Of a stretch of DNA of 32,000 bases, positions 1-22,290 are shown piece by piece (positions within the stretch are counted from its first letter, which is position 1; each line of letters begins with the position of its first letter). Location: contig DXJG01000001.1 in the NCBI GenBank assembly GCA_019056805.1, forward strand, positions 120,001 to 152,000, read 5' to 3'. Below the pieces are notes generated by a model, which searched no databases, was not told where the DNA came from, and saw only the letters and a list, made by a program, of their open reading frames with translations. The stretch comes from Candidatus Baldrarchaeota archaeon (lineage in GTDB: Archaea; Asgardarchaeota; Baldrarchaeia; Baldrarchaeales; DXJG01). The position numbers were made by a program, and so were the translations under genes.

Positions 1-1056
1 ATCAAAAAACTTTTGATAAGACATAGTCCAAAGTTTGTCTGAAGATTTAACGAAGTACTTTTCTCTGGAGATTTTAATAACTCCTTCTGGACAGGCATTT
101 TCACATGCACCACAAAAGATGCAGAAATCTTCTACAATTAATATTTTTGTCGGTACAGGTTTTCTAGGAACATATATTACATTAACTGGGCAGATATTCA
201 TACAGTTTTTACAGCCACTCGGGTCACATTTCTCAGGTTTTAATATTTCAGCTTTGCCAAGAAGAGGTTTTGCAAATTGGATTGCTTCCGTAGGACAAAA
301 CTTAGCACAAATACCGCACCAAACGCATTTCTCATCATCAATTACAAGGCTTCCTTCGATTTTTAACTCACCTATTTTACGGGGAGCTGAAGCAGTGCAT
401 TCAACCTTTATAGCGTCTGATGGACATATTTTTTCACATAGCCCACAATAATCGCAAGAGTTCTCTTCTACTGAAATGGTAATGCCAGGCTTATATTCTG
501 GTGGTTGTGGATCAACCCATGTAATTTTTACAGCATCGCATAAAAGTTCACATAGTCCACAAAATGAACATTTCTCCACATCTATACTTATTTTACCCTT
601 AGCCCATTCTTTATCTTCATATTTTACCAGTTCTTCCTTTTTTGGTACTTTAATGTCAACCTTTACAGCATTGCGAGGACATATTTTTTCACATAGCAAA
701 CATGGTATGCACTTCTCAAGATCTACTTTTATTTCACCTTTAATTTGTGGATATTGAGGTTTTTCTTCGAATTCTAATTTTAGAGCTTCAAAAAAACACA
801 CTGATGAGCATAGAGGACAAGCAACGCATTTAGTTTCATCAATTACTATGAGAGGGGCTTCAAATTTTCCAGCAGCTACTTCAGTTACTGGTCCAAGGGA
901 AATCGCATCCACAGGGCAAACCAATTTGCAGAGGCCACAAGCCGTGCATTTTTCCATATAGAAGTTAAGTTGCTTAGAAAGTTCTGGGGCTTTCCACTCA
1001 TAAGTTAAAATATTGTCTAAGATGATTAGCTCCAATTTTGGTTTTTCAACAGCCAT
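1..1056 (-). CDS. fwdF: Polyferredoxin, formylmethanofuran dehydrogenase subunit F-like (3' end runs off the window)
   Basis: Missing from the ORF track; translated by hand from ATG at 1056 (1 nt after the hdrA stop): MAVEKPKLELII...YMEKCTACGLCKLVCP...KVFD, open to position 1. Eight ferredoxin-type Cys motifs: CTACGLCKLVCP, CVACPLCSSVC, CIPCLLCEKICP, CSFCGLCELLC, CDYCGLCEKICP, CVWCGICAKFCP, CDPSGCKNCMNICP, CIFCGACENACP. Confidence 0.85.
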   Translation of the reverse strand, partial: MAVEKPKLELIILDNILTYEWKAPELSKQLNFYMEKCTACGLCKLVCPVDAISLGPVTEVAAGKFEAPLIVIDETKCVACPLCSSVCFFEALKLEFEEKPQYPQIKGEIKVDLEKCIPCLLCEKICPRNAVKVDIKVPKKEELVKYEDKEWAKGKISIDVEKCSFCGLCELLCDAVKITWVDPQPPEYKPGITISVEENSCDYCGLCEKICPSDAIKVECTASAPRKIGELKIEGSLVIDDEKCVWCGICAKFCPTEAIQFAKPLLGKAEILKPEKCDPSGCKNCMNICPVNVIYVPRKPVPTKILIVEDFCIFCGACENACPEGVIKISREKYFVKSSDKLWTMSYQKFFD

Positions 1057-1057
1057 A

Positions 1058-3442
1058 TTAATCCCCTTCAGTAAATTCACTGCCTATAGGTCCAAGCTGT
1101 TTAATTCTATTTACAAAATCAGTGATTATTTCAGCAAGTCTTTTTCCCTCAGCCGCCGATGCCCCAACGATTTCTACTCTATCAGGTTTTATTCCATGAA
1201 ATTCTAATAATTTTTTGAGATGTTCTATCTTTTTGTCCGCTTTCAGACGACCAGTACGGTAATGACAGTCCTGTTCATGGCAGCCAACGATTAGAACTCC
1301 ATCGGCTCCAAGACTTAAAGCTTCTAGTATATGAATTGGATTAACTCTAACTGAACAAGGAACTCTAATGATCCTAATATTTGTCGGATAATTTATTTTA
1401 TTCACTCCAGCATTATCAGCAGCAGCGTAACCACACCATTTACACATAAAACTTACAATTAGAGGGTATTCTTTCTTATCAATCAACAAAACTTCCAACA
1501 TTTGTGATATTTGTTTATCACTGAGTTCAATTGATGGTTGAAGAGCACCAGAGGGACATACAGCTAGACATGCACCACAACCCCTGCATGCAGCTTCTTT
1601 AATATATACCTTCCTCTGTTCTATTTGAATAGCCCCAAAGTCGCAAGCTAAAGTGCAGAGACCACAGTGAATGCATTTTTCTTCGTCGAACTCTGGAGCC
1701 ACAGATTCTAATTCTAATTCTTTTAGAGATAGAAAAGTTAATGCTCTACTAGCTGCCAATCCTGCATGAGTTACAGTTTCAGTTATATCTTTTGGACCAT
1801 TACAAGTACCTGCTAGAAATATACCACTACTAAAGGTGTCAGACGGATTTAATTTTGGATGATATTCCATGAAAAAGCCATTTTCATCTAATTGTAACCC
1901 AAGAACGCTAGCTAGCTGCTTTGTGTCAGCACTAGGCTCCATACCAACACTTAAAACTACAAGGTCGAATTCTTCTTCCCTATATTTACATTCGAGAGTA
2001 TCTTCATAGAAAATTCTCAGTTTACCGGTTTTACTTTTCCTTATGTAACTTACTCTTCCCCTTACAAATTTTACACCAAGACTTAATGCCCTTCTATAGG
2101 CTTCTTCTCCCATTTTTCCGATTATCCTAATATCAGTGTAAAATATTGTTATATCCGTATCGGGTTTTGTGAGTTTTGTTTGTATAGCTTGCTTTATTGC
2201 ATACATACAACAAACTCTGCTACAATATTGTCTACCCACTTTATCTGATCGACTACCTACACATTGTATGAACGCTATTTTCTTAGCATCTTCGTTATTT
2301 GAAAATCTAATAATTTTCCCCTTGGTTGGTCCCATACTATTTAACATTCTCTCATATTCAGGACCTGTAACAACATCTAGATACCTACCATAACCATACT
2401 GTTCAATTTCCATAGGATTGATCGGAGAATATCCGGTTGCAACTATGATTGCTCCCACTTTAAGGGTAAAACGTTTTTCAGTATCTGAAAAGTTTATTGC
2501 ACCCTCACGGTCACAAATTCCTACACAATTCATACATCCAATGCACTTATCTATGTCGATATAAGGTGCCATGGGAACGGTTTGGGGAGCAGGCTTAACC
2601 ATTGCTTTTCTATAACCTATACCATATTCATATTCATTTGGAACTTCTATTGGACATACTTCTAAGCACTTATTACATCCATTACATATTTCCTCGTCAA
2701 TAAATCTTGGTTTTTTAACTATTTCAACAATATAACTGCCTGGTAATCCTTCGATTCGAATCACTTCACTTAGTGTAAAAACTTTAATTTTAGGATGGTT
2801 ATATGCCATCGCTAACAGAGGCCCTAAAATACATATGCTACAGTCAAGTGTAGGAAATACTTTATCCCATTTGGCCATATGCCCGCCTAAAAAACCGGAC
2901 TTTTCGACCAAATACACATCGATACCCATATTTGCGAGATTAAGAGCAGAAGTTACTCCTGCAACGCCGCCACCAATGATAAGTACTGCTTTTTCGATGG
3001 GAATTTTCAGCTTTTTCACTGGGCGCGAGTATTGAATTGAAGCTAAAGCCATATTTATGAGATCTAAAGCCTTTAATGTCGCTCTTCTCGGATCATGCCA
3101 ATGAACCCAGCTACATTGCTCCCTTACATTTACGATTTCAAGAAAACCGGGATTTAAACCTGCTTTTTCAATTCTTTCTTTAAATAATCTTTCATGCAAA
3201 GACGGAGTACAAGCCGCTATTAAAACTCGCTTAACTTTTTCTTTCTCCACTATTTCTTCTATTTTTCTTAGTCCATCATCACTACATAAGTGTTCATGTT
3301 CAAAACAAACTACATTAGGAATTTTTGACAACTGTTGAATTAAATATGGAATATCAATTACACCCGCAATGTTCGTACCACAATGACAAAGAAATACTGC
3401 AGTCTTTTCCTTAATTTCAAGGGGAATAGACAATATAGTCAC
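1058..3442 (-). CDS. hdrA: Heterodisulfide reductase subunit A fused to a C-terminal MvhD ([2Fe-2S]) domain
   Basis: N-terminal CHCGTNIA...LCS...AACTP...REQCSWVH cluster, GGGVAG FAD motif, FPTLDCSICIL, inserted ferredoxin domain, QCVGSR...CSRVCCMYAIK, C-terminal 2x[4Fe-4S], then MvhD motifs CKWCGYAAAD / RVPCSVRV / GCHEQDCHY. GTG start directly after the upstream stop. Confidence 0.93.
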   Translation of the reverse strand: MTILSIPLEIKEKTAVFLCHCGTNIAGVIDIPYLIQQLSKIPNVVCFEHEHLCSDDGLRKIEEIVEKEKVKRVLIAACTPSLHERLFKERIEKAGLNPGFLEIVNVREQCSWVHWHDPRRATLKALDLINMALASIQYSRPVKKLKIPIEKAVLIIGGGVAGVTSALNLANMGIDVYLVEKSGFLGGHMAKWDKVFPTLDCSICILGPLLAMAYNHPKIKVFTLSEVIRIEGLPGSYIVEIVKKPRFIDEEICNGCNKCLEVCPIEVPNEYEYGIGYRKAMVKPAPQTVPMAPYIDIDKCIGCMNCVGICDREGAINFSDTEKRFTLKVGAIIVATGYSPINPMEIEQYGYGRYLDVVTGPEYERMLNSMGPTKGKIIRFSNNEDAKKIAFIQCVGSRSDKVGRQYCSRVCCMYAIKQAIQTKLTKPDTDITIFYTDIRIIGKMGEEAYRRALSLGVKFVRGRVSYIRKSKTGKLRIFYEDTLECKYREEEFDLVVLSVGMEPSADTKQLASVLGLQLDENGFFMEYHPKLNPSDTFSSGIFLAGTCNGPKDITETVTHAGLAASRALTFLSLKELELESVAPEFDEEKCIHCGLCTLACDFGAIQIEQRKVYIKEAACRGCGACLAVCPSGALQPSIELSDKQISQMLEVLLIDKKEYPLIVSFMCKWCGYAAADNAGVNKINYPTNIRIIRVPCSVRVNPIHILEALSLGADGVLIVGCHEQDCHYRTGRLKADKKIEHLKKLLEFHGIKPDRVEIVGASAAEGKRLAEIITDFVNRIKQLGPIGSEFTEGD

Positions 3443-4723
3443 CTATATTTTGGATAATATTTTTCTAAGTACTTCTTCTTCTGAGAACATATTTTTTGGA
3501 GGCTTCAAGAAAGGTTTTAACTCTATTTTCTTTCCGTCAGTTCTTGTTATATATCCACCCGTTTCTAACCCAGTCAAAGTTACAGGTATTGTAACAGAAG
3601 CAAATTCCGATACTAAAGTGGGAATTTCTTCCAACGCTATTGTTGGAATCTTTAATAATTGTTTTGTTGCAGATCTTGGAATATGGGTAAAAATATCTGA
3701 TTTTACGATTATTGCGGCGTCAAAATTCCCTCTTAACAACTGATTTGTTACACTTGTTACCGACGGATTACTAACCGGACTACCGTTAGAAAAATCTATA
3801 GCATAAGTAAATCCTGTTTTTTTCTTGGAAATTAATGTGACACCCATAGAATTTAGATTTTCAGCCAGGGGAGTTACTGTACAAGTCTTCTTCGTACTTA
3901 TGGATTTAACTAGTTTTACAATATTTTCAATGATTTGATCAACATTTATGCTATACATTACCCCAGAACCTACAAATACAGCTACAAATGTAGCATTTTT
4001 TAAATCATGCATAAATGTGGCAAAGGATAATTGCGAAATTCCAGCAACATCATCTTCTGTGGAAGACTCCTGGCTAAAAGCATCTTGGATTTTGCTTATA
4101 AGGTCAAGGTCTTCACCAATATTCACAATAAGTTGATGTTGCGCAATCCTCGTAACTTTCGTTTTTCTAACATCAATGGTGGCAACGATTCGATTTTCTC
4201 TACCCGTTTTTACTATTTCTCCTCTGGGAAAAACAGAATATCTACTAGCCTGTCTTAAATGGGTATCAGCAAGGTTTGCGCCCCAGAAAACTATAAAATC
4301 TGCTTTATCAAGAATTTCCTCCAATTCTCCAATTCTTACTCCGTACTTTTCTAACAATGGGACTGTTAAATGGCAAATACTCGGACTTGTATCAAATGTT
4401 CCACCAATCTTCTCGGCGAGAGCCAACCCTAGTTCAATGGTTTCATTAGTGCTATTTTCGAAACCATAAACTAGTACCTTTTCAGCTGAAGACAATATTT
4501 CCACAGCTTTATCTATAGCGTCTTCTGTTGCCACACTACGTGTAATTCCATTTTCAAAAATCTTTGCTTCTAATAAACGAGTTGCTAGTACTTCTTTGAA
4601 TCGTTTGGTACCGTGACTACATGATCCATACACTTTGCTAATGCTTCCATCAGATACATCAATAACTATGTCATCACATAAAAGCGAGCAACCTGTGCAT
4701 GGAATATCGGTCAATTTTTTCAT
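3443..4723 (-). CDS. fwdB: Divergent formylmethanofuran dehydrogenase subunit B paralog
   Basis: CTGCSLLCDD...C [4Fe-4S] motif, SICH metal-ligand motif, FWGAN, DVRKT and GLETGGYITRTDG align with the canonical FwdB at 15476-16759; the RGHFN motif is replaced by AENLN. Confidence 0.8.
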   Translation of the reverse strand: MKKLTDIPCTGCSLLCDDIVIDVSDGSISKVYGSCSHGTKRFKEVLATRLLEAKIFENGITRSVATEDAIDKAVEILSSAEKVLVYGFENSTNETIELGLALAEKIGGTFDTSPSICHLTVPLLEKYGVRIGELEEILDKADFIVFWGANLADTHLRQASRYSVFPRGEIVKTGRENRIVATIDVRKTKVTRIAQHQLIVNIGEDLDLISKIQDAFSQESSTEDDVAGISQLSFATFMHDLKNATFVAVFVGSGVMYSINVDQIIENIVKLVKSISTKKTCTVTPLAENLNSMGVTLISKKKTGFTYAIDFSNGSPVSNPSVTSVTNQLLRGNFDAAIIVKSDIFTHIPRSATKQLLKIPTIALEEIPTLVSEFASVTIPVTLTGLETGGYITRTDGKKIELKPFLKPPKNMFSEEEVLRKILSKI

Positions 4724-5199
4724 GCAATCACCTTAATAGCTTCACTATAACAAACTATTTCACAAATATTACAATTTAACCTATGTGGAGGGTTTCTTCT
4801 ACATTTATCTAGATTTAACATCTTTATTTTTCCATCTTCCACAGTAAAAACAACATCTGTGGTTCTAGGGTTAATTCCCTTTGCGACTGCTGGTTCTATA
4901 GCAACATTAGCTGGACAGGCAATTACACAATTACCACAACCTATACACTTGTCTTCATCGATTTGGATAAGTGTTTGCATAGCAGATAAAAGAGGAGCTA
5001 TTAATTCCTGTAGTTGTTTAAGGTTCTCAGCGTATTTGGGGTCGTTAAAAAGAGGAGTGCATTGCTCGAGAGTTACCTCTCTTTGTAAGAGTTTTATAGC
5101 GAATGACATGCAGGTATGGCCGCATAATTTGCAATTTGTTTTAGGAAGAAGCTTATAGATTTGAAGCGGTGTAAGTCTTGTTGACAACTTATTTTTCAC
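4720..5199 (-). CDS. fwdG: FwdG-like ferredoxin with an N-terminal CdhE/RnfB-type Fe-S domain
   Basis: N-terminal LLPKTNCKLCGHTC...C four-Cys domain; C-terminal CIGCGNCVIACP and CRR...CNICEIVC typical of FwdG; stop overlaps the fwdB-like ATG (ATGA). Confidence 0.7.
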   Translation of the reverse strand: MKNKLSTRLTPLQIYKLLPKTNCKLCGHTCMSFAIKLLQREVTLEQCTPLFNDPKYAENLKQLQELIAPLLSAMQTLIQIDEDKCIGCGNCVIACPANVAIEPAVAKGINPRTTDVVFTVEDGKIKMLNLDKCRRNPPHRLNCNICEIVCYSEAIKVIA

Positions 5200-5312
5200 C
5201 CCATCTGACCTTTAATTCATCACAATCTTCCATGAAAGTATGTGATTTTCTTTAATTTCTTTTAAGGATATCATATTTCAAAGGTCTTTCATATCTCATC
5301 GGAATATTCCTA

Positions 5313-5663
5313 TTAAGTAACTTGTTTTCCATACATTTTCCAAAGTTCTCTCATTATGAAGTCTCCTTTAGATTTAACCTCTTCCCACGCTTCCTCTATT
5401 TCTAAACTATATACGTTTTTTTGTAAACATTCGTTATATTTTTCTATGAATTTTATCACAGCTTTCACTACTGGTTGCTGTAAAATTTCTAGTTTTTCTT
5501 TGCCTACATCTATACTACTTATCAAAGCTCCCTCAATGTACTTTTTATTACCAAGAATATCCATCAACACAAGTTTTCCTTCTTCATAGTAGACTCTGAC
5601 TATATCTTCTGCTACTTTGCTTTCCCGGTCTCGGTCTTTTATAAAAACTTTAAATTCACACAT
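5313..5663 (-). CDS. cooT: CooT-family nickel-binding protein with a helical C-terminal extension
   Basis: The ATG at 5663 gives MCEFKVFI...EDIVRV...LVLMDILGNKKYIEG, with the Met-Cys2 N-terminus typical of CooT; GGTGG SD-like sequence upstream. The ORF track start (5672) is probably too far upstream. Confidence 0.7.
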   Translation of the reverse strand: MCEFKVFIKDRDRESKVAEDIVRVYYEEGKLVLMDILGNKKYIEGALISSIDVGKEKLEILQQPVVKAVIKFIEKYNECLQKNVYSLEIEEAWEEVKSKGDFIMRELWKMYGKQVT

Positions 5664-5827
5664 TTTTTCCACCAGTTTTCAAACAATCTTGAGACTTATA
5701 AATGTAAATAGTTTAATTAGTATTGGAAGCGGGCTGATTTATAAGAGGAATTAGATATTATGAAACATTCTACAAATTTTTAAGTTTTGTTTTAGGAAAC
5801 CCTAAAAATTAAACAAATCAACAATGA

Positions 5828-6727
5828 TTGTTGACATTGCTAACAACTAATAAAAGGGGTTTGGAAATTCGCAAAAAATACATGGTAATCACAATCAAAA
5901 CGAAGTATTGGAAGCCTGGTACAAACTACATAGGTGTGATAGTGGATGTTCTAAAGGACAAAATTCGAAATGGCGATATAATTGTATTATCCGAGAAAGC
6001 ATTATCCACAGCTATGGGAAATCTCGTTGACGAATCTAAAGTAAAACCAAGTTCTCTGGCAAAATTTCTCGCTAATTTTTGGAATAGAATAATTTGGGGC
6101 TACATACTAGGGACACTCTGCCATCTTAAACCTGAAACAATCATCAAGCTACGAAACTACCCAGTTCGATACGGTGCAGCTCACAAACAATTAGCATTGT
6201 TTTACGGCGGATTCTTTCAAGCATTAAGACATTATTCTGAAGGAGGCATCGATGTTAGCAATATACCCTACACCTATGCATGCCTACCTTTAAAAAACCC
6301 TATAGACATTGCAAAAAGAATCTTAAAGGCCATAACACATGCTACTAGGAAAAAAGTAACAGTTATGATCGTTGATGGTGACAGTACCTTCTCTTTTAGA
6401 AATATTCACTTAGCTCCAAGAAAAGTTCCTGTTAAAGGACTTATACACTTCGGTGGATTCCTAACGTTTGTTATAGGTAGGTTCTTTAAAATGAAGAAAA
6501 CAGCCACCCCCATAGCTATTGTAGGTCGTCCATTACACATAAATGACGCCTTAGAAATAGCCGAACTAGCAGATAAAGCCAGGGGTCATGGAGCAGGCAT
6601 GACAGCCTGGGACATGGCAAAAAGATTTAAAGTCGGATTAACTCAAGTAACATGGGAAATGCTTAATAAAATAAAACATAAACCGATAACGATAATTAGA
6701 AGAATAAATCATGTCGTGGTGACTTGA
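5828..6727 (+). CDS. F420-0:gamma-glutamyl ligase-like (CofE-fold) protein, divergent paralog; start uncertain (5828/5861/5882)
   Basis: GDIIVLSEKALSTAMG, GGIDVSN, VMIVDGDS and TPIAIV motifs resemble the CofE/F420_ligase fold but differ from canonical CofE. Confidence 0.65.
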   Translation: MLTLLTTNKRGLEIRKKYMVITIKTKYWKPGTNYIGVIVDVLKDKIRNGDIIVLSEKALSTAMGNLVDESKVKPSSLAKFLANFWNRIIWGYILGTLCHLKPETIIKLRNYPVRYGAAHKQLALFYGGFFQALRHYSEGGIDVSNIPYTYACLPLKNPIDIAKRILKAITHATRKKVTVMIVDGDSTFSFRNIHLAPRKVPVKGLIHFGGFLTFVIGRFFKMKKTATPIAIVGRPLHINDALEIAELADKARGHGAGMTAWDMAKRFKVGLTQVTWEMLNKIKHKPITIIRRINHVVVT

Positions 6728-7680: not shown

Positions 7681-8736
7681 TCAGCTATCTAACAACCTCA
7701 AATAATCTGAACCATTAGCTTCAGGAGAGCCTATAAGTATTCGATAGTAGCTAGTTCCCACAGTCCTATTAATAATATTCTCCAATTTTCCCCTTACTTC
7801 AATTTTTTCTCCCTCTCTAGCTATATCACTATAAAGCCCCTCGTAAGAAACAACTTCCTTTATGTTACCATTAATTTTTGGGCCTTCCACAATTTTTACT
7901 TGACTAATCTCGTATATTGCTGGGTTAAATATCGAATTTTCTGCATTTACAACAGTAGCTCTAACTTTTACTATACCAACCGGCCGAAACACGAAATCAT
8001 CATATGAACTGGAAATTTCTTCTTCCACCTTTACTGGGTGTATAGAAAACAAAGTCCCATCAAAAATTCCTCGATTCCACTTTCTTTCACATATCTTTCT
8101 TGCATCATCTAATTCAAGACGATAAAGACTGGATACTTTAACACACCATTCCTTAAATTCAACTTTCGAAAATTTTCTTACATTAGAGGCAGAATCTCGA
8201 TAAAGATTTAACAACGTCTCCTTAACCTTGTAACTGTTGTCTTTTCCGTAAATTATTAAGTCTATGTCAGAGAATTCCACTCTATGAATATTAATAAGAA
8301 TCGACCCTGTAATCCCGAAAGAATTCAAAGGAACATTACTTTCCTTTGAAATCAACTTAACTAGTTTTATAACCTTTGATTCAAGTTCATCCTGCGCAGA
8401 ATTTTCTAAAATTTCTCTTAATCTTTCCTCAGGTTTAAAATGCTTTTCGATATAATCAGTCGGTACAAAAGACATCATTATATTCAGATTTTTATCCTTA
8501 TACAAATATTGCGGATACTTTTCCTTCAACAGGCTGAAAGTTTCCTTGAGCGAAGGTATTGTATAATGTCTTAATACACGTTTAAATTTCTCAACTCCAC
8601 GACCCCAAGAACCAGTTTCATCTGGTACATACTTTAAATATGCAATAATCTTGTCGTTAGGATGAATGTTGCCAACAACTACAAAAAATAAACCATCTTT
8701 AGTCAATAAATAATCTCTATCTCTAAATCCTCTCAT
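7681..8736 (-). CDS. Predicted Pol-beta-type nucleotidyltransferase (COG1665-like), paralog 2
   Basis: GITGSILINIHRVEFSDIDLIIYG (GS...DxD) motif, N-terminal HP...IIAYLKYVPD and a C-terminal OB-like region. Confidence 0.75.
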   Translation of the reverse strand: MRGFRDRDYLLTKDGLFFVVVGNIHPNDKIIAYLKYVPDETGSWGRGVEKFKRVLRHYTIPSLKETFSLLKEKYPQYLYKDKNLNIMMSFVPTDYIEKHFKPEERLREILENSAQDELESKVIKLVKLISKESNVPLNSFGITGSILINIHRVEFSDIDLIIYGKDNSYKVKETLLNLYRDSASNVRKFSKVEFKEWCVKVSSLYRLELDDARKICERKWNRGIFDGTLFSIHPVKVEEEISSSYDDFVFRPVGIVKVRATVVNAENSIFNPAIYEISQVKIVEGPKINGNIKEVVSYEGLYSDIAREGEKIEVRGKLENIINRTVGTSYYRILIGSPEANGSDYLRLLDS

Positions 8737-9767
8737 TATTCATCCTCCACCACAACCATGAAGTCCTTGGGATTTCCACCGATAATCAACCTATAATAAT
8801 AAAAATCATTTGATTGAAGGACTTTCTCGATAGTTCCTTGAACAACAACCTTTTCGCCTACACGAGCTTGTTCGCAAAATCTACCTCTAAAAGACACAAT
8901 TTCCTTTAGTGGGGCAACAGGATTTCCCTGTAAAAAAACAATACTATCTATAAGATATCTACATGGCGTAAAGATAGCTTCCTCATCATTGGTAATCCGT
9001 GCTTTTATCTTTGCCCTTCCTATAGGAACATAAATCTTTTCACCATACTTCTCTGTAATTTCACTCCAATCCTTAACAAATCTAATAAAATAATCTCTTC
9101 CTTTAAATTCTCCCTGCATAACTTTTCTTATTTCTGTTTTAATGAACTGTTCAAAAGAAACCTCAGTATCCCTGGCCCTAAATTTGTAAAGTTTTTTTAA
9201 ACCATTTTCATCGTAACTTTTAATGGGAGTTTCGGAAGAAACAAGCCACCTTAAAGCTTCATAGATCCTTACACAATTTGCGGTCCCGTAGACGACTACG
9301 TCTATATCCGAGTTTTCGTCATGTAAGTCTACAAGAATAGAACCTGAGATTCCAATTTTCTCCCAAGAAATTCCAGATTTTTCCTTCAACAGTTTGATAA
9401 ATTCGAAAGCATCTTTTTCTATCCCGGTGAGATTTTCGGAACGGTGTTTCATCTCGTGTAACTTTTTCTCAGGTTTATAATGCTTATATATACTTTCGGT
9501 AGGTACACCTTCTAATAACTGGTTAAAAACAGGGTCAAAGTAAAGATATTTAGGATAATTTTCTAATAAATACTTATTTCTTTCATGAAGAGAATAAATT
9601 TTCCTATAAAATCGTTTTCCTCTTTTTCTTTTTCCTTTCTCGTCTGGAGTATAACGAACATATGCTATTACACGATCTGGAGGATGAATTAAACCCTTTA
9701 CATCAAATATTAATCCCTCAAAGCTTTCGACAAAGTCTCCTTCACGTGCCTTCACTGTTTTTCTCAT
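8736..9767 (-). CDS. Predicted Pol-beta-type nucleotidyltransferase (COG1665-like), paralog 1
   Basis: GISGSILVDLHDENSDIDVVVYG motif; homologous along its length to the downstream gene; TAATG stop/start overlap. Confidence 0.75.
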   Translation of the reverse strand: MRKTVKAREGDFVESFEGLIFDVKGLIHPPDRVIAYVRYTPDEKGKRKRGKRFYRKIYSLHERNKYLLENYPKYLYFDPVFNQLLEGVPTESIYKHYKPEKKLHEMKHRSENLTGIEKDAFEFIKLLKEKSGISWEKIGISGSILVDLHDENSDIDVVVYGTANCVRIYEALRWLVSSETPIKSYDENGLKKLYKFRARDTEVSFEQFIKTEIRKVMQGEFKGRDYFIRFVKDWSEITEKYGEKIYVPIGRAKIKARITNDEEAIFTPCRYLIDSIVFLQGNPVAPLKEIVSFRGRFCEQARVGEKVVVQGTIEKVLQSNDFYYYRLIIGGNPKDFMVVVEDE

Positions 9768-12597: not shown

Positions 12598-13593
12598 TTA
12601 TTCCTTGAAATGTGGTATTATTTCCTTGCTTATTAGGTCTATGGCTTCTCTTACGTTTGGTCCTATAGGTGATCCTACAACAAATTGCGAAATTCCTAGT
12701 TTAATCAATTCATTTATACGTTCGATACATGTTTCTGGTGTTCCGCTTATTGAAAATGCTTCAATCATTTCTGATGTCACTTTTGAGAATGCCTCACCCC
12801 AGTTTCCTGCTTCTAAAGCTTTCTTAATAGCCATGGCATCCTCTACACTAATTCCATGTTTTTCTAGTACAGGCTCTGGGCTACCAGAAACTATGAATGC
12901 AACTACTGGTGTTGCAGCCTTAATAGCTTTTTTCTCCTTTTCATGTATGGAGAAGGATGTATACGCAGCTACATCAATATCGGCTAGTTTTCTGTTTGCT
13001 GCTTCTGCTCCAGTTTTTATGTACTTTAGAGCATCCCCGATATCTTTTGGGTGTGAAGCATTAATCAGAACCCCGTCACCCATACTAGCTGCTAATTGAA
13101 GCATTTTAGGTCCTTGTGCACCTATATATATTGGAATTGTTCCTTTCGGTTTGAAATTGAACTTTGCCTTTTGAACACTGAATATTTTTCCAGCAAACTT
13201 TACTTTTCCTGTAGTGGTTAAAGATCTAATTATCTCTACACTTTCTCTGATAGCAGTAAGTGGTTTTTTAATTTCTATACCCAAGAGACTTAATGTAGTT
13301 TTGTCCCCAGCACCGATACCGAGGGTGACCCTGTTTGGAGCTATTTCAGATAGGGATGCAACTGATTGTGCAGTTACGACAGGGTTTATAAGATAGGGGT
13401 TTGTGACACCTGGACCTAATTTTATTTTGTTTGTATGTAAGGCTATGGTTGTTAAGGCTACGTAGACATTCCTATTATTGAAGTGGTCTGTTATCCATAC
13501 ATAATCAAAACCTGCTTTTTCAGCCTGAATTGTATAAAATGTGGTTCTCCAATACAAATCCATAGGAACGAATTCTATTCCAAACTTGACCAT
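12598..13593 (-). CDS. mer: F420-dependent methylene-H4MPT reductase
   Basis: KFGIEFVP, WITDHFNNRNVY, LGPGVTNPY, LGIGAGD, IGAQGPKML, VGSPIGP. Confidence 0.95.
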   Translation of the reverse strand: MVKFGIEFVPMDLYWRTTFYTIQAEKAGFDYVWITDHFNNRNVYVALTTIALHTNKIKLGPGVTNPYLINPVVTAQSVASLSEIAPNRVTLGIGAGDKTTLSLLGIEIKKPLTAIRESVEIIRSLTTTGKVKFAGKIFSVQKAKFNFKPKGTIPIYIGAQGPKMLQLAASMGDGVLINASHPKDIGDALKYIKTGAEAANRKLADIDVAAYTSFSIHEKEKKAIKAATPVVAFIVSGSPEPVLEKHGISVEDAMAIKKALEAGNWGEAFSKVTSEMIEAFSISGTPETCIERINELIKLGISQFVVGSPIGPNVREAIDLISKEIIPHFKE

Positions 13594-13620
13594 AACTCAT
13601 CCCCTCTTATCATTTTTACT

Positions 13621-13887
13621 TTACTTTTTCAACTCCTTAGCAACGTCCCCTAGACCAGCGTTACTCAATAGTTCTACAGTCTGTTCCGGTTCGATGGTAT
13701 ATGCTGCTTCGAGCAATTTCTGAAAACCTTCATCAGATTCAAGTTTGTCATATTGCCAGTAATGAAGAAGCAAATTAGCTGTGCTGCTTGGAAGCTTAGA
13801 AGCATTGCCAGATCGCAATAATATGTCAATTAAAGGTGTAACTAGGCCTTTTCTTTTTTCTAAATCTATTTTTTTCACAAGTTCCAT
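13621..13887 (-). CDS. Small hypothetical helical protein between mtd and mer
   Basis: 88-aa ORF filling the gap exactly (16 nt after the mtd stop, 27 nt before mer), GAGAGGG SD-like sequence upstream, protein-like composition. Confidence 0.75.
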   Translation of the reverse strand: MELVKKIDLEKRKGLVTPLIDILLRSGNASKLPSSTANLLLHYWQYDKLESDEGFQKLLEAAYTIEPEQTVELLSNAGLGDVAKELKK

Positions 13888-13903
13888 TTCGAACCCTCTC
13901 CGA

Positions 13904-14752
13904 TTACTCAGGTTTTTTAGGTTTTTCGATGAGTTTTCTTTTACTTAAAATTTCTCCAGTTTTGTGATGGGGCATTCTCAATAAGTAATCTCCATATTTT
14001 TCTATTTCTCGAGCTTCGTCAGCAAGCATAGCAGCTATTCGAATCATTTCATGGGCAGCAGCTACAATTGGAACATATCTTTCCATTTCTTTTATCATAA
14101 AGCAGCCTTCCACGGTAAGACTTGCAGCACTGCGAGCTATTTCATGAGCAGCCATAGCTTTTGCCAACGCATATGGATTCGAGAATCCTGCAGCCTTTAC
14201 AGCATTTTCTTTTTCAATGACTATTCTTGGAAGCTCAGGTTTTTCTCCTTTCTTTATTTGATCAATTACTCTGCCGATTTCTCTGTACACTATAGAAAAT
14301 ACACCAGTTACTGAAAGAACTTTAATTAAATCAGCGTTAAAGATAGCCATTTCTATTGGATCAAGAAATTCTCGTCTGGCACCGATCATAGCATCAGCGG
14401 CAATGATAAAATAACCCATATTTTTCTCTTCAATATCTTTCACCGCTTTTTTCCCAGGTTGATCACTGATAACTATTGTAGGAATATTTGATTGGGCTAA
14501 AATTTCTCTAGCCTTTTTGGGTCCAGGTAGTGCAGCATTTGGACTAATCACGATGATAAGATCCGGTTTGAAGTCTAAGATTTTTTTAGCAACTTCTTCT
14601 GCTTGCGCTGGACCCATTTTAGCTCCGCTTCCAACTACACGCACATCTAAATCTTCTCTATCAGCTCTTTCATCAAATAGAAACTCGATAAGAGGTGCCG
14701 TGCCAATATTACCGCATTTTACAACTCCTATTTTTATTATTCGCCCTTCCAT
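13904..14752 (-). CDS. mtd: F420-dependent methylene-H4MPT dehydrogenase
   Basis: KIGVVKCGNIG, DERADRED, GSGAKM, SPNAALPGP, MIGARREFLDPIEMAIFNAD, AAAHE; likely start is the ATG at 14752 after GGGGG (the ORF track start 14839 is AT-rich upstream sequence). Confidence 0.95.
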   Translation of the reverse strand: MEGRIIKIGVVKCGNIGTAPLIEFLFDERADREDLDVRVVGSGAKMGPAQAEEVAKKILDFKPDLIIVISPNAALPGPKKAREILAQSNIPTIVISDQPGKKAVKDIEEKNMGYFIIAADAMIGARREFLDPIEMAIFNADLIKVLSVTGVFSIVYREIGRVIDQIKKGEKPELPRIVIEKENAVKAAGFSNPYALAKAMAAHEIARSAASLTVEGCFMIKEMERYVPIVAAAHEMIRIAAMLADEAREIEKYGDYLLRMPHHKTGEILSKRKLIEKPKKPE

Positions 14753-14810
14753 TATTTTTCCCCCATTATTTTCTTCCAGTAAAATATTCAACAAACATAA
14801 TTTAACTGTT

Positions 14811-14818
14811 ATATATAA
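14811..14818 (-). promoter_or_regulatory. TATA box candidate for mtd-hyp-mer
   Basis: TTATATAT on the minus strand about 60 nt upstream of the mtd ATG, in the divergent intergenic region. Confidence 0.35.
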
Positions 14819-15048
14819 GTTTACTAGAATAACATTCATTACATAATTTTCGATATTTTTATGTTCACTTTACGTTTTAACACGTTTTTAATATCATTTT
14901 TTAACCTAAATGATAATAATTCGGTGGTTTAACACTAGAGAAGAGAAGTTACTATTATTGTTAATTTAGCATTTTTCAACTCTAGCTAAAATCTCAAAAA
15001 GGTTAAAAGCTAATATTATCAACATAACTCTGAGATTGAATCACCATC

Positions 15049-15056
15049 TTTATAAT
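15049..15056 (+). promoter_or_regulatory. TATA box candidate for fwdDBAC-mch
   Basis: TTTATAAT about 28 nt upstream of the fwdD ATG; GAGAGGG SD-like sequence between them. Confidence 0.35.
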
Positions 15057-15083
15057 TTATTAACAGAGTAGAGAGGGCCAAAT

Positions 15084-15479
15084 ATGATTAAAGTAATTTT
15101 AATAACGGGTAGGAGTTTGGATCAAGGAATCTCTAAGGAGTATGGTAAATTTTCTAAAACATACATGGAAAAAGTTGCTGTATGTGAGCTAGACGCAGAA
15201 GATATTAAAACGCTTGGAATAAATCCGGGTCAGAATGTTAAAGTGAAAACAAAATATGGAGAGGTCGTTGTTAAAGCTGTTGAATCTACTCAAGCTCCGC
15301 ACAAGGGTATAGCTTTTATACCCTATGGTCCTTGGGCCAGCAGTGTAATGCCTTCAACTACGGAAAGTACTGGCATGCCTTCACTTAAGGGAATAGAAGC
15401 AACGATAGAACCAGCTTTGGGTGAAGAAATTTTAGATCCTAAAAAACTCATAAAAACGATTGTGGGGAGAGAGCCTTGA
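15084..15479 (+). CDS. fwdD: Formylmethanofuran dehydrogenase subunit D
   Basis: LITGRSLDQG, VKVKTKYGEVVV, FIPYGPWA, TGMPSLKG; overlaps the fwdB start (TTGA). Confidence 0.93.
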   Translation: MIKVILITGRSLDQGISKEYGKFSKTYMEKVAVCELDAEDIKTLGINPGQNVKVKTKYGEVVVKAVESTQAPHKGIAFIPYGPWASSVMPSTTESTGMPSLKGIEATIEPALGEEILDPKKLIKTIVGREP

Positions 15480-16759
15480 AAACCATAAGTAATGTTGTAT
15501 GTCCGTTCTGTGGAAGTCTATGTGATGATATAGAAGTAGATGTAGAAAACGGTCAAGTGACAAAAGTAAGGCGAGGATGCGCAATAAGTATAGCAAAATT
15601 TACAAAATACGGTGAAGAGAGGATATATAAGCCGAGAATAGATGGAAAAGAAGCATCATTGGAGGAAGCTATAGATAAAGCTGTTGAAATACTTGCAAAT
15701 GCAAAATACCCAATTCTATACGGTTGGAGCTGTACCTCAACAGAAGCAATAAACGTAGGTATAGAAATTGCAGAATTAATAGGCGGGGTAATGGACAATA
15801 CAGCATCTGTATGTCACGGACCCACTATAATAGGGGAGCAAGATGCCGGAATATCCACATGTACATTAGGTCAGGTGAAACATAGAGCAGACCTTATAAT
15901 ATATTGGGGATGCAATCCGGCACATGCTCATCCAAGACATATGGCTAGATACTCTGCAGCAAGTAAAGGAAAATTTGTAAAAGGCAGAAATGAAAGAAAA
16001 GTGATCGTAGTTGATGTAAGGAAAACTCGCACAGCTAAAGCAGCTGATATATTTATTCAAGTTGAACCAAACTCAGATTACGAATTGTTAACAGCTCTAA
16101 GATGGGCAGTAAAAAACGGAGAATTAGAACAGCCGAAAATTGCAGGAATACCCGCGGAGAAAATAGAAGAAATAGCAGATATGTTAATTTCATGCCGATT
16201 TGGAGCATTGTTCTTTGGATTAGGATTAACCATGTCAGCAGGGAAAGCGAGAAACATAGAAGCAGCTGTATCCCTAGTTAGAGAATTAAATAATTACACA
16301 AAATTTGTAATGATGCCTATGAGAGGACATTTTAACGTTACCGGCGCCAACGAGGTAATGGCATGGATAACAGGTTATCCCTTTGCAGTCGACTTTAGTA
16401 GAGGTTACCCGTTCTATAACCCTGGAGATACAACTGTTGTTGATATACTTACACGAGGAGATTGTGACGCAGCACTAATAGTAGCCTCAGACCCCGTTTC
16501 AGGCTTTCCAACCGAGGCAGTAAGAAATCTTGCAAAGATCCCCGTAATAACAATTGACCCTCACGAGACACCAACAACTATGATATCAAAAGTGGTTATA
16601 CCAACAGCTTTGGTTGGAATAGAAGCGGAAGGATCAGCCTATAGGATGGATGCAGTACCTTTGAGACTTAAGAAACTTGTTGATCCACCGCCAAATATTT
16701 TATCGGATGAAGAAGTTCTAAAAATGATTCTTAAAAAGTTAAAAGAGAGGGTGGGATAA
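15476..16759 (+). CDS. fwdB: Formylmethanofuran dehydrogenase subunit B (Mo/W-pterin, Cys-ligated)
   Basis: CPFCGSLCDD, DNTASVCHGP, WGCNPAHAHPRH, MPMRGHFNVTG, EGSAYRMD. Confidence 0.96.
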   Translation: MKTISNVVCPFCGSLCDDIEVDVENGQVTKVRRGCAISIAKFTKYGEERIYKPRIDGKEASLEEAIDKAVEILANAKYPILYGWSCTSTEAINVGIEIAELIGGVMDNTASVCHGPTIIGEQDAGISTCTLGQVKHRADLIIYWGCNPAHAHPRHMARYSAASKGKFVKGRNERKVIVVDVRKTRTAKAADIFIQVEPNSDYELLTALRWAVKNGELEQPKIAGIPAEKIEEIADMLISCRFGALFFGLGLTMSAGKARNIEAAVSLVRELNNYTKFVMMPMRGHFNVTGANEVMAWITGYPFAVDFSRGYPFYNPGDTTVVDILTRGDCDAALIVASDPVSGFPTEAVRNLAKIPVITIDPHETPTTMISKVVIPTALVGIEAEGSAYRMDAVPLRLKKLVDPPPNILSDEEVLKMILKKLKERVG

Positions 16760-18451
16760 TTGGAGATACTCATAAAAAACGGATATGTTTATGACCCGAT
16801 AAACAAGATAGACGGCGAAAAAATGGACATAGCAGTCAAAGACGGAAAGATTGTAGAGTCAGTCGGTTCAAACGCCAAAGTAATAGATGCATCAAATATG
16901 TTAGTAATGCCGGGAGGAGTAGACATACATTCCCATATAGCAGGTTCAAAAGTGAATTCAGGACGAATACTAAGACCAGAAGATCACTATAAAGATGTAG
17001 AGCCAAGAACCACAGTAACAAGATCAGGAGTCGGTTACACGGTTCCTTCATCATATACAATAGGTTATCGATATGCAAAACTTGGATATACAACTGTAAT
17101 AGAGGCAGCATCACCTCCACTAAAAACAAGACATACACACGAAGAACTAAATGATATACCATTAATTGACAAAACCTGCTACCTTGTGCTTGATAATAAT
17201 TGGATTGTTCTAGATTATTTAAGCCAAGGAGAAATTGATAAATGTGCGGCGTTCATAGCATGGATTCTAAAAGCATTAAAAGGCTATGCTATAAAAATCG
17301 TTAATCCAGGAGGAGTAGAACTCTGGGGATGGGGGAGAAACGTAGAAAGCTTGGATGACCAAGTACCCCCCTTCAACATAACTCCACGAGAGATCGTTAG
17401 AGGATTATGTAAAATAAACAAAATACTCAATCTACCTCATACAATACATCTTCATACAAACAATCTCGGAAAACCTGGAAATTATCGCACAACCATAGAA
17501 ACTATGGATGCTGTAAAGGACTTAGCAGATGGAAAACCAAACATACATGTAACACATGTACAGTTTTGCGGATATGGTGGAGATACATGGATTACACTGA
17601 GGTCTGGAGCACCAGAAATAGCAAAATACGTAAATAATCATCCACATGTCACAATAGACCTAGGACAAGTAGTTTTCGGAGAAGCCACAACCATGACAGG
17701 TGACGGACCATTCCAGTTCATATTACAAAGTCTAACTGGAAACAAGTGGAAAAATGCAGATGTAGAGGCAGAGGGGAGTGCAGGAATTGTACCGTACAAA
17801 TTTAAACGTAAAAACTTCGTAAATGCAATACAGTGGACCATAGGGCTGGAATTAGCTCTTCTAATAAAAGATCCTTGGAGAGTGTTCTTAACAACAGATC
17901 ATCCAAATGCAGGACCATTTACGGAATATCCAAGGGTAATAGCTTGGTTAATGAGCACAAAAGCACGAGAAAAGACAATGGAAAGGATAAACAAAAGAGC
18001 CAAAAAACGGAGCGTATTACCTAGCGTGGACAGAGAATATACTTTCTATGAAATTGCCATAATAACAAGAGCTGCAACGGCAAAAGCTCTAAATCTAACA
18101 AATAAGGGACATTTAGGTGTAGGAGCAGACGCAGATATAGCAATATACAATATAAATCCGATGGAAGTAAATCCATCAAAAGAATACAAAAAAGTTAGAA
18201 AGGCGCTTAGAAGGGCAGCATATACCATAAAGGGAGGAGAGATCATAGTTAAGGATGGGGAAATTGTTAAATCATTTGTAGGGGAGACGTTCTGGGTAAA
18301 ACCAACAATGCCTGAAGAACTAGAGAAGGAAATTTTAAGAGAAGTTGCAGAGAAGTTCAAAGAATACTACACGGTGTCGCTTGAAAACTACATCATAGGA
18401 GAACATGAATTAGCCCGCTCAAGGTCAATAACAGTAAATACTTCCCTTTAG
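16760..18451 (+). CDS. fwdA: Formylmethanofuran dehydrogenase subunit A (binuclear amidohydrolase)
   Basis: GGVDIHSHIAG, AIKIVNPGG, HLHTNNLG, HVTHVQF, TTDHPNAGPF, GHLGVGADADIA. Confidence 0.97.
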   Translation: MEILIKNGYVYDPINKIDGEKMDIAVKDGKIVESVGSNAKVIDASNMLVMPGGVDIHSHIAGSKVNSGRILRPEDHYKDVEPRTTVTRSGVGYTVPSSYTIGYRYAKLGYTTVIEAASPPLKTRHTHEELNDIPLIDKTCYLVLDNNWIVLDYLSQGEIDKCAAFIAWILKALKGYAIKIVNPGGVELWGWGRNVESLDDQVPPFNITPREIVRGLCKINKILNLPHTIHLHTNNLGKPGNYRTTIETMDAVKDLADGKPNIHVTHVQFCGYGGDTWITLRSGAPEIAKYVNNHPHVTIDLGQVVFGEATTMTGDGPFQFILQSLTGNKWKNADVEAEGSAGIVPYKFKRKNFVNAIQWTIGLELALLIKDPWRVFLTTDHPNAGPFTEYPRVIAWLMSTKAREKTMERINKRAKKRSVLPSVDREYTFYEIAIITRAATAKALNLTNKGHLGVGADADIAIYNINPMEVNPSKEYKKVRKALRRAAYTIKGGEIIVKDGEIVKSFVGETFWVKPTMPEELEKEILREVAEKFKEYYTVSLENYIIGEHELARSRSITVNTSL

Positions 18452-18453
18452 AG

Positions 18454-19290
18454 GTGAAAGAATTGGGTGAAATAATATTAAAACCAAAAGTAGCATTTAA
18501 AGTACCGATAATTGCTGAGACGATAACTCCAGACAATTTTGCAGGAAAATCTATCAAGGAAATAGAAGATTTGGAAGCATGGGAAGGAAATAGGAAAACA
18601 ACTCTCGGAGAACTATTTGAAATCACTGGAGCTCCTGGAGAAACACCGAAAGACACAAAGATAATTATCGAAGGCGACGTAAAAAAGGTTAAAAAAATAG
18701 GCTGTAAAATGACAGATGGAGAAATTATAATTAAAGGATCCGTAGGAATGTATTTAGGCGAGGAGATGAAAGGCGGTAAAATAACCGTAGAGGGGGATGC
18801 AGATTCCTGGATAGGAACAAGAATGAAGGGAGGACAAATAGAAGTCAAAGGAAACGCTGGAGATTACATCGGAGCTCCCTACCGTGGAGACACAAAGGGT
18901 ATGAAAAAAGGCACCATAATAATACATGGAAATGCTGGAAATGAAGTAGGATGTTGGATGAGAGGGGGAACAATAATAGTAAAAGGAAACACGGGACTTT
19001 TCCCCGGAATACATATGAAGAAAGGTACAATACTAATTGAAGGGGATTGTGCAGGAAGATGCGGAGCCATGATGAAAGGCGGTAAAATAGCAGTTTTAGG
19101 CTATGTTCCTTCAATTCTTCCAAGTTTTACTTTCGAAGAAATCAAAAAATCCTTTAAGATCAAAGGGGAGAAAATTAAAGGACCATTCTACGTTTTTACG
19201 GGCGATCTAAATGAAAACGGAGCAGGAAGACTGCATGTTTCGGTAGAGAAAAATAAACATCTTCAATTCTATGAAAAGTTTCTGGAATGA
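18454..19290 (+). CDS. fwdC: Formylmethanofuran dehydrogenase subunit C
   Basis: GNRKTTLGELF followed by beta-helix repeats (MKGGKITVEGDA, MRGGTIIVKGN, GAMMKGG). Confidence 0.95.
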   Translation: MKELGEIILKPKVAFKVPIIAETITPDNFAGKSIKEIEDLEAWEGNRKTTLGELFEITGAPGETPKDTKIIIEGDVKKVKKIGCKMTDGEIIIKGSVGMYLGEEMKGGKITVEGDADSWIGTRMKGGQIEVKGNAGDYIGAPYRGDTKGMKKGTIIIHGNAGNEVGCWMRGGTIIVKGNTGLFPGIHMKKGTILIEGDCAGRCGAMMKGGKIAVLGYVPSILPSFTFEEIKKSFKIKGEKIKGPFYVFTGDLNENGAGRLHVSVEKNKHLQFYEKFLE

Positions 19291-19309
19291 CATGTAAGGA
19301 GGAATTAAA

Positions 19310-21330: not shown

Positions 21331-22290
21331 GTGGCATCAATGCCAAAAGATACTGAAGAGATTATTAATAAAGTAGTGCAGTCAGCACAATTGGCAATGA
21401 TTCTTGAAGTAAGTGCTTATCCAAAACCTGGAAATGTACATAGAACGGCAGACTTTAAAGATACAACATACGAACATTTCTTGGCTTCGGCAATAGCGGT
21501 ATTACCTCAACTGCAAAAAGCAGCTAAAATGGGAGTTAAAGTTGCCCTATCTGAAATATCTCCTTCTCAAGCTGAGATAGGTAACATTATAAAAGAGGGG
21601 GTCATTGAGACAGCAAAATGGCAGAAAGGAGGAAATACAAATTTAGGGGTTCTCATACTTATGATTCCACTGATTATGGCAGAAACATACACACTTACGA
21701 AAAATCAAGAGTTAAAAAAACTTAGAAAAAATATTAAGCTATTTACTGAGGCAACAACACCTACTGACGCAATAAACTTGTACGAAGCCATAAAAATTGC
21801 AAAACCAGGAGGATTAGGAAAAACTAACTACCTAGATGTTACAGATCCAAAATCAACCAAGCAAATTATAAATCAGAAAATATCATTGTATAAAATTTTT
21901 GAAAAGTCAGCAAGCTACGATAAAATAGCCGAGGAATGGATTACAAATTATAAAATAACTTTTGAAATTGGGGCACCGTATTTACAAAGAGTGTATAAAG
22001 AAACTGGTAACACAAATATAGCGATAGTGCATACTTTTCTAAAAATTCTATCTACAATACCAGATACGTTAATTGCTAGGAAAACAAATTTCACTATGGC
22101 CCGAAAAATTTCTGAAAAGGCAAAACAAATTTTAGAACTAGGAGGCTTAACAACTGAAAGAGGAACAAAACTTCTATGGGAGTTCGATAAAGAATTAAGA
22201 AAGGAAGGTAACAAACTTAACCCGGGTACAACAGCGGACTTAACGGCATCAAGTCTCATGATTACAATATTTAACGGCTTCAAACCATAA
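21331..22290 (+). CDS. citG: CitG-family triphosphoribosyl-dephospho-CoA synthase-like protein (Orf7-like)
   Basis: LEVSAYPKPGNVHR, NTNLG, PDTLIARK, NPGTTADLTAS. Confidence 0.85.
   Translation: MASMPKDTEEIINKVVQSAQLAMILEVSAYPKPGNVHRTADFKDTTYEHFLASAIAVLPQLQKAAKMGVKVALSEISPSQAEIGNIIKEGVIETAKWQKGGNTNLGVLILMIPLIMAETYTLTKNQELKKLRKNIKLFTEATTPTDAINLYEAIKIAKPGGLGKTNYLDVTDPKSTKQIINQKISLYKIFEKSASYDKIAEEWITNYKITFEIGAPYLQRVYKETGNTNIAIVHTFLKILSTIPDTLIARKTNFTMARKISEKAKQILELGGLTTERGTKLLWEFDKELRKEGNKLNPGTTADLTASSLMITIFNGFKP

Follow-up and report, generated by a model that had tools for sequence, protein, structure and literature searches.

Gene content of the cluster

The 32,000-nucleotide stretch analysed here (the window) covers positions 120,001 to 152,000 of contig DXJG01000001.1 of a Candidatus Baldrarchaeota archaeon (assembly GCA_019056805.1), cited below as G000:C6:120001-152000. 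The draft genome comprises 1.92 Mb in 18 contigs, with a completeness of 91% and a contamination of 3.6%. The left end of the window carries the first genes of a cluster encoding homologues of formylmethanofuran dehydrogenase (Fwd) and heterodisulfide reductase (Hdr) subunits, and this cluster is the subject of the present analysis. The DNA on its left was read as L002 (C6:107001-126000), and L002 coordinates are used for everything left of the window. The whole unit reads fwdG'-fwdB'-hdrA/mvhD-fwdF'-(antisense fwdD')-hdrC-hdrB, then cooC-cdhABCDE, the window holding the 5' two-thirds of the seven genes. The features are listed below, with the NCBIfam cut-offs given where a score is compared to them.

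4720-5199, minus strand: fwdG', a FwdG-like ferredoxin of 159 amino acids (aa) with an N-terminal CdhE/RnfB-type [4Fe-4S] domain and three predicted clusters
3443-4723, minus strand: fwdB', a divergent FwdB paralogue of 426 aa, member of the 'AE' clade described below (TIGR03129, 345.8 bits)
1058-3442, minus strand: HdrA-MvhD fusion of 794 aa (HdrA2 model NF040770, 988 bits; PF02662 at residues 662-784)
1-1056, minus strand, whole gene at L002 12761-14056: FwdF-like polyferredoxin of 431 aa, FwdF' (FwdF model NF042909, 258 bits, cut-off 375)
L002 12401-12778 (G000:C6:119401-119778), plus strand: fwdD', 125 aa (FwdD match, E 6.6e-18; below the NCBIfam cut-off)
L002 ~12380-11877, minus strand: hdrC-like gene (76 bits, cut-off 160)
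L002 11880-10951, minus strand: hdrB-like gene (215 bits, cut-off 345; PF02754 matches twice)
L002 10935-10147, minus strand: cooC-like gene, 15 nt after hdrB
L002 9877-2612, minus strand: cdhA, cdhB, cdhC, cdhD and cdhE (annotation of the left flank)
5313-5672, minus strand: gene for a CooT-like nickel chaperone, 113 nt before fwdG' (PF10133 CooT, E 1.1e-12)
15084-19290, plus strand: canonical fwdD-fwdB-fwdA-fwdC operon (NCBIfam matches), whose FwdB has its Cys-His and Arg-Gly-His motifs intact

The first four open reading frames are tightly packed. The ATG of fwdB' overlaps the preceding TGA to form ATGA, the TAG of fwdB' is directly followed by the GTG of hdrA (spacing of 0 nt), and a single base separates the TAA of hdrA from the ATG of the polyferredoxin gene, which crosses the left window edge and extends 239 nt past it. 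These junctions, already reported in a preliminary description of the window, were all confirmed, and judging from them the four upstream genes are translationally coupled. That description had also proposed that the four genes form a dedicated module apart from fwdDBAC, which agrees with the conserved gene set reported below, and that the canonical operon lacks the F and G subunits, as is indeed the case: no F or G gene was found beside fwdDBAC. The identities given for FwdB', HdrA-MvhD and the FwdF-like protein stand with reservations, FwdB' passing its cut-off narrowly and the other two scoring below theirs, and that of the first gene has to be amended, its product being FwdG in part only, with a PF04060 N-terminus.

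Left of the window, hdrC and hdrB are found within ~2 kb, so that the unit does include hdrBC, which had been noted as missing from the visible part. The absence of mvhAG and fdhAB, noted likewise, holds for the cluster with its left flank included, and only one half (hdrBC) of the gene set named in advance as marking a conventional Hdr-Fwd locus is present. The cluster likewise contains no gene resembling fwdA or fwdC. A second fwdD, suggested as a gene to look for, is present on the opposite strand. Its product is 32% identical to the canonical FwdD, and the gene exactly fills the gap between the polyferredoxin gene and hdrC, with an 18-nt 3'-3' overlap with the former and the divergent hdrC start ~20 nt away. 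With fwdD' lying antisense inside the cluster, transcription of hdrCB would have to cross fwdD' in antisense or start at a promoter within it. Contigs from independent metagenomes agree with this DNA without any difference, the polyferredoxin/fwdD'/hdrC junction included, so that an assembly error can be dismissed as the source of the inverted fwdD'. The inversion is also kept in Nezhaarchaeales, in a Logan contig and in the Asgard genome G100. A minus-strand open reading frame of 137 aa at L002 12370-12783 was rejected as spurious, as it has no family match and an odd composition; the true gene is the plus-strand fwdD'.

Components of the proposed complex and the altered active site of FwdB'

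Residues 12-651 of the HdrA-MvhD fusion match solved HdrA (E 1e-188) and residues 660-786 match MvhD (E 1e-33). Its best NCBIfam model is HdrA2, and the domain make-up of the HdrA part (flavin adenine dinucleotide, FAD, plus Fe-S) fits an HdrABC heterodisulfide reductase. A script motif search found both C..CC..CxxC (CCG) cysteine sets in HdrB and two [4Fe-4S] motifs in HdrC. The polyferredoxin, the sole FwdF-like protein encoded in the genome, has 8 cluster motifs and an extra C-terminal tail of ~85 aa; among solved proteins it is closest to FwdF (E 1e-53) and FmdF (3e-51), MvhB being matched at 1e-24 only. The solved-structure matches of the cluster proteins include 7BKB, 9SW6 and 9SFI, which we take to be the Methanospirillum hungatei Fdh-Hdr-Fmd complex, a class I Hdr-Vhu/Mvh-Fwd complex and a further such supercomplex, respectively.

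FwdG' is twice as long as FwdG, and the NCBIfam matches listed for it do not include a FwdG family model. Residues 83-135 match solved FwdG (5t5i_G, E 9e-9), with FmdG likewise among the best solved matches. Residues 9-77 form an Fe-S domain of the type found in CdhE, in the corrinoid iron-sulphur protein (CFeSP) and in RnfB (PF04060 at residues 18-49, plus Fer4), the N-terminus matching CdhE (NF003195, E 1.4e-17), RnfB and the CFeSP gamma subunit 2h9a_A (E 9e-6). In a structure prediction run with three chains, FwdB', FwdD' and FwdG', the predicted place of the FwdG' ferredoxin domain is the Fe-S end of FwdB', where it would contact residues 18-43 and 151-168. The interface score (ipSAE) is 0.94 compared to 0.00 for the best control, with an agreement between runs of at least 99% and a partner local confidence (pLDDT) of at least 82. 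Of 78 solved complexes, 51 attain the ipSAE mark used, as do 2 of 108 mismatched pairs. Since solved FwdG-FwdB complexes exist, this predicted contact is possibly a mere likeness to solved Fwd, and falls short of proof.

FwdB' passes the TIGR03129 cut-off marginally (345.8 bits compared to 327.8), the canonical FwdB of the same genome scoring 591.9 bits. It nevertheless aligns over its full length (residues 2-426) with the solved FwdB 8rja_B (E 4.6e-64), and keeps the four Fe-S cysteines (C9, C12, C16 and C35) as well as the metal-binding Cys-His pair (C117-H118). The catalytic Arg-Gly-His is gone: Pro-Met-Arg-Gly-His of solved FwdB reads Pro-Leu-Ala-Glu-Asn in FwdB'. In the Methanothermobacter wolfeii enzyme, His119 and His290 are active-site residues (PMC11656701), and by position the lost arginine would be Arg288.

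This change is fixed in a group of sequences that we call the AE clade. All 17 members have Ala-Glu or Val-Glu in place of Arg-Gly, and Arg-Gly-His is found in the 18 canonical FwdB to which they were compared, the arginine being also conserved in the two solved FwdB chains aligned. This second-sphere arginine is conserved in formate dehydrogenases (FDHs) as well. The clade is monophyletic (support 98/93) and takes in sequences from Nezhaarchaeales, Methanomethylicia, Geothermarchaeota and Thermoproteota. It has 31 conserved columns in common with the 18 canonical proteins, including the four Fe-S cysteines and the ligand cysteine, the latter retained in 16 members and replaced by serine in one; the histidine after it (His119 in M. 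wolfeii numbering) varies between H, Q, R and K. Such a pattern suggests that the pocket has been re-tuned and has not decayed. Because Arg-Gly is fixed as Ala-Glu (or Val-Glu) across the clade, FwdB'D' is probably not an ordinary catalyst of CO2 or formate conversion. It would then be a pterin enzyme whose chemistry has changed, or else serve as an electron relay or scaffold, and we do not choose between the two. The preliminary description had noted an altered FwdB but left the loss of the catalytic arginine out of account.

Distribution of the cluster and origin of the block

The gene order, whose conservation in other genomes had been raised as a point to check, recurs in Nezhaarchaeales and in a near-identical Logan contig. 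The closest relative of FwdB' (87% identical) is encoded on the Logan contig L049, which has the same arrangement from ftr through cdhC, with hdrB and cooC 15 nt apart and on a single strand with cdh, as in the host. Two Nezhaarchaeales contigs (L072 and L073) agree with the host in all seven genes and in their order, the inverted fwdD' included, with identities of 60-63% for HdrA, 56-60% for FwdG', 38-39% for FwdB' and 31-37% for HdrB and HdrC. In two contigs labelled Methanomethylicota (L005 and L007), fwdG'-fwdB'-hdrA-polyferredoxin is convergent with cdhABCDE and fwdD' closes the cdh operon. A Methanomethylicia contig and a Thermoproteota contig have the same gene set, further rearranged. 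L005 and L049, too, have a cooT-like gene beside the cluster.

Within the host phylum, a FwdB-family match was found in 274 of 400 genomes, with an identity to FwdB' that never exceeded 38%; the best of these matches are other non-canonical FwdB-like paralogues. At 25 such loci, viewed with flanks of 1.5 kb only, an FeS-ferredoxin 41-56% identical to FwdG' is encoded directly upstream in 23, a divergent HdrA-MvhD in 11, and cooC follows directly in 10. These Asgard loci are not independent of each other, although several families are covered. They resemble the host cluster in their FeS-ferredoxin and HdrA-MvhD and, in wider views, in the polyferredoxin, the antisense fwdD', and hdrCB or cooC-cdh. 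They differ from it in their FwdB-like proteins, which form an 'xGH' clade (arginine lost, Cys-His and Gly-His kept) and an 'EY' clade (ligand cysteine lost as well); representatives beyond ~E 1e-50 were excluded from these motif classes, as the alignment degrades there and the classes become unreliable. Some of these loci also have a FwdA-like paralogue.

Two of them were read over a longer distance. G005, of the same order as the host, has hdrB, hdrC, fwdD', a FwdA-like gene, the polyferredoxin gene, hdrA-mvhD, the FeS-ferredoxin gene and a FwdB-like gene; a short FwdG-like gene accompanies its canonical fwdDB, and the module is on a separate contig. G100, of the Asgard family f12, has cdhDCBA..cooC-fwdB-like-FeS-ferredoxin opposite hdrA-mvhD..polyferredoxin, with fwdD' antisense. 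The FwdA-like paralogues added to the clusters of G005, G114 and G308 are 27-41% identical. The cluster type is thus linked to the genes of carbon monoxide dehydrogenase/acetyl-CoA synthase (CODH/ACS) in several lineages.

The host genome appears as a mosaic at this place. Window positions 1-5700 together with L002 2612-13000 (cdh and the Fwd-Hdr cluster) are Thermoproteota-like, and window positions 13900-19300 are like those of the same genus. Three genomes of the same genus (82-91% complete) have mtd-fwdDBA, 85-92% identical to the host genes, canonical fwdDBA included, but neither FwdB', nor the polyferredoxin, nor an orthologue of HdrA was found in them. CdhA is 80-82% identical to L005 and L007, compared to 62-67% for genomes of the same genus or order, and HdrA is 60-64% identical to Nezhaarchaeales. 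Since the block is nearer to Thermoproteota contigs than to sister genomes, while mtd-fwdDBA is of the same-genus type, the comparison suggests that cdh and the Fwd-Hdr genes were transferred as a block between Thermoproteota and Baldrarchaeia. Nearest relatives in Thermoproteota rather than in sister genomes would point to the exchange of an energy module between these archaea and Asgard archaea. Alternatively, binning errors in the named records may lie behind the mosaic pattern.

Relation to described systems

The cluster fits a type already in print. In the cultured methanogen YNP3N (Methanonezhaarchaeia), Kohtz et al. (Sci Adv 2025; PMC12700198) described a 'Fwd-Hdr' cluster in which a second FwdB and a FwdD are colocated with HdrABC, a FwdF polyferredoxin and FwdG, apart from FwdABCD; cluster, complex and reaction are genomic predictions there, and the catalytic residues, with the missing arginine, are not discussed. 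The novelty claimed in the preliminary description was therefore overrated. The host cluster shares the second FwdB/FwdD apart from FwdABCD and the colocated HdrABC, FwdF' and FwdG', a likeness taken from the description of YNP3N, gene order and identities being those of the Nezhaarchaeales contigs above. It differs in running into cooC-cdhABCDE and in its host, which lacks mcrA, mtrA and comA and so shows no sign of a methanogen cycling the heterodisulfide of coenzymes M and B (CoM-S-S-CoB). What goes beyond the published description is the non-methanogenic Asgard host, the union with CODH/ACS genes and the fixed loss of the catalytic arginine. Elsewhere, Chadwick et al. 2022 (PMC9012536) make no mention of this cluster type, the description of Baldrarchaeota states a complete archaeal Wood-Ljungdahl pathway without mentioning this cluster, and a 2026 paper on Hdr-Fmd supercomplexes gives the roles of FmdF groups outside classical methanogens as uncharacterised.

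Compared to the methanogen Hdr-Fmd/Fwd supercomplexes, the cluster has homologues of HdrA, MvhD, HdrBC, FwdF/FmdF, FwdG and FwdBD with full-length matches. Unlike them, it encodes neither FwdA nor FwdC, and a donor module of the Mvh, Vhu or Fdh type is missing from it. HdrA and MvhD form a single protein, FwdG' carries an additional Fe-S domain, the Arg-Gly-His of FwdB has been replaced in FwdB', and no heterodisulfide-producing pathway was detected in the host. A second point of comparison is HdrA2B2C2 of Methanosarcina acetivorans, in which, as Yan, Wang and Ferry are said to have reported in 2017, HdrA2 is an HdrA-MvhD fusion encoded beside a polyferredoxin and F420H2 is the direct donor. 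The fused MvhD, the neighbouring polyferredoxin and HdrA2 as best model are common to both, but the host HdrA stays below the model cut-off (988 bits compared to 1100), and the Methanosarcina HdrA2 locus is presumably devoid of FwdB- or FwdD-like genes.

Proposed function and alternatives

With modest confidence, we favour the reading that the products of the cluster assemble into a single soluble complex for flavin-based electron bifurcation or confurcation, HdrA-MvhD/HdrBC/FwdF'/FwdG'/FwdB'D'; a Fwd-Hdr complex was proposed for the same cluster type (Kohtz et al. 2025, PMC12700198). HdrA-MvhD would hold the bifurcating FAD, and HdrC and HdrB would carry the high-potential electron to a disulfide. 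This disulfide is probably not CoM-S-S-CoB, because mcrA, mtrA and comA are missing: MCR_alpha, MtrA and ComA had no match in the host genome, whose absences are read from a 91% complete draft and as such fall short of proof. The earlier suggestion that the high-potential partner may differ from the methanogen heterodisulfide is in line with this result. By analogy with the solved complexes, the low-potential electron would pass from HdrA to the 8 clusters of FwdF', to FwdG', to the [4Fe-4S] cluster of FwdB', and to a pterin site capped by FwdD'. As mid-potential donor, F420H2 might react directly with the HdrA2-type subunit, or a hydrogenase encoded outside the cluster might serve. Three [NiFe]-hydrogenase-type loci and ~10 CCG-domain proteins were found in the genome. 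The extra CdhE/RnfB-type domain of FwdG' might provide a side port to ferredoxin or CODH/ACS; together with the recurrent linkage to cooC, cooT and cdh, it suggests that the wire may reach CODH/ACS.

Several observations weigh against this proposal. The cluster has no donor module of the Mvh, Fdh or FrhB type, and a genome-wide search found no F420-reducing subunit of the FrhB/FdhB family. HdrA, HdrB, HdrC, FwdF' and FwdD' all score under their NCBIfam equivalog cut-offs. In several lineages, L005 and L007 among them, hdrCB is not beside the module, so HdrBC is possibly not obligate. Among the subunit contacts, modelling covered that of FwdG' with FwdB' alone. The loss of the arginine leaves the terminal reaction of FwdB'D' undefined, and EY modules without the ligand cysteine retain the same neighbours, which favours a non-catalytic role.

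A bolder version, which we put forward tentatively and with clearly less confidence, is that FwdB'D' is no CO2 or formate enzyme at all, but serves with FwdG' and FwdF' as a hard-wired bridge between HdrA and CODH/ACS, or is a pterin enzyme with a new chemistry. If true, this would represent a previously undescribed, ferredoxin-independent way of supplying or withdrawing the ~-500 mV electrons of the Wood-Ljungdahl pathway in non-methanogenic Asgard and TACK archaea, and would account for 'heterodisulfide reductases' in archaea that make no heterodisulfide. The cluster also bears on the low-potential electron balance of this pathway in Asgard archaea. Hdr genes are widespread in archaea that produce no methane, where their partners and substrates are in question, and the present locus offers one case joined to an acetyl-CoA synthase operon.

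Taken strictly as a relay, the module would consist of a catalytically dead FwdB'D' which, with FwdG' and FwdF', forms an Fe-S path or scaffold from HdrA to CODH/ACS (CdhA or the corrinoid protein), replacing free ferredoxin. We find this unlikely. The linkage to cdh, cooC or cooT recurs in the host, L049, L005, L007, L051 and the Asgard family f12, FwdG' has its CdhE-type N-terminal Fe-S domain, and the EY relatives lacking the ligand cysteine keep these neighbours, all of which a relay would explain. But genes of the Wood-Ljungdahl pathway cluster in these genomes anyway, which makes synteny alone weak evidence, and the Nezhaarchaeales and Methanomethylicia clusters do not adjoin cdh. Moreover, the AE clade conserves the ligand cysteine, the Ala-Glu switch and FwdD', a pattern suggestive of selection for a functional pocket.

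A further alternative, put forward in the preliminary description, is that the module supplies the missing F/G wiring and a bifurcating HdrA, docking on the canonical FwdABCD and providing it with low-potential electrons for CO2 fixation. In the solved methanogen supercomplexes FmdF bridges HdrA and FmdB, and the host has its only FwdF-like gene in the cluster, with no F or G gene near canonical fwdDBAC, as would be expected if the two worked together. The same-genus genomes argue against an obligatory wiring of this kind: all three keep fwdDBA yet show none of the polyferredoxin, FwdB' or orthologous HdrA, so that the module is dispensable for canonical Fwd. In G005, in addition, canonical fwdDB is accompanied by a FwdG-like gene, with the module on another contig, and in the host the module has its own FwdB'D', FwdG' being predicted to bind FwdB'. 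We consider such docking improbable.

The least probable explanation is the one proposed for YNP3N (PMC12700198), in which FwdB'D', an FDH-type module with the ligand cysteine in 16 of 17 clade members, would act as a formate dehydrogenase whose electrons are bifurcated by HdrABC to the disulfide and ferredoxin, since Arg288 is replaced by Ala or Val and the adjacent Gly by Glu in every clade member, His119 varies, the homology of FwdF and FwdG places FwdB where the low-potential branch ends and not at the MvhD donor port, and YNP3N showed no growth with added formate. The fixed arginine change in FwdB' hence undercuts the sole published functional proposal, formate oxidation, and we retain the bifurcating or confurcating complex, with its terminal site left as above, as the preferred reading.

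The rest of the window is a tetrahydromethanopterin (H4MPT) Wood-Ljungdahl island with ftr, mer, mtd, fwdDBAC, mch and mptN. The mer and mtd products (window 12598-14839) are of F420-dependent types, yet the search of the 91% complete genome gave no F420-reducing subunit of the FrhB/FdhB family. Inside the island, a CofE-like ligase gene adjoining ftr, two nucleotidyltransferase-like genes and a CitG-like gene were also noted, all with weak family matches (5828-6727, 7681-9767 and 21331-22290).

Other redox loci were found on another contig of the host genome, C11. A second Hdr cluster (G000:C11:203351-209509) encodes a 652-aa pterin subunit of the dimethyl sulphoxide (DMSO)-reductase family, hdrC, hdrB and an HdrA-MvhD fusion of 798 aa; its HdrB and HdrC both score above the equivalog cut-offs, unlike the copies of the Fwd-Hdr cluster. 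Its FdhA-like gene was rejected as a formate dehydrogenase, as it lacks the Cys/Sec-His and RGxxN motifs, and appears to encode a general DMSO-reductase-family subunit. At G000:C11:64717-70117 lies a Nuo/Mbh-like group-4 [NiFe] hydrogenase module (fused NuoC/D-like large subunit, NuoB, HycF-like protein and NuoH), in which an HdrB-like CCG protein and a DmsB-like four-cluster protein are embedded, resembling the 'Ehg'-type arrangement (PMC12700198).

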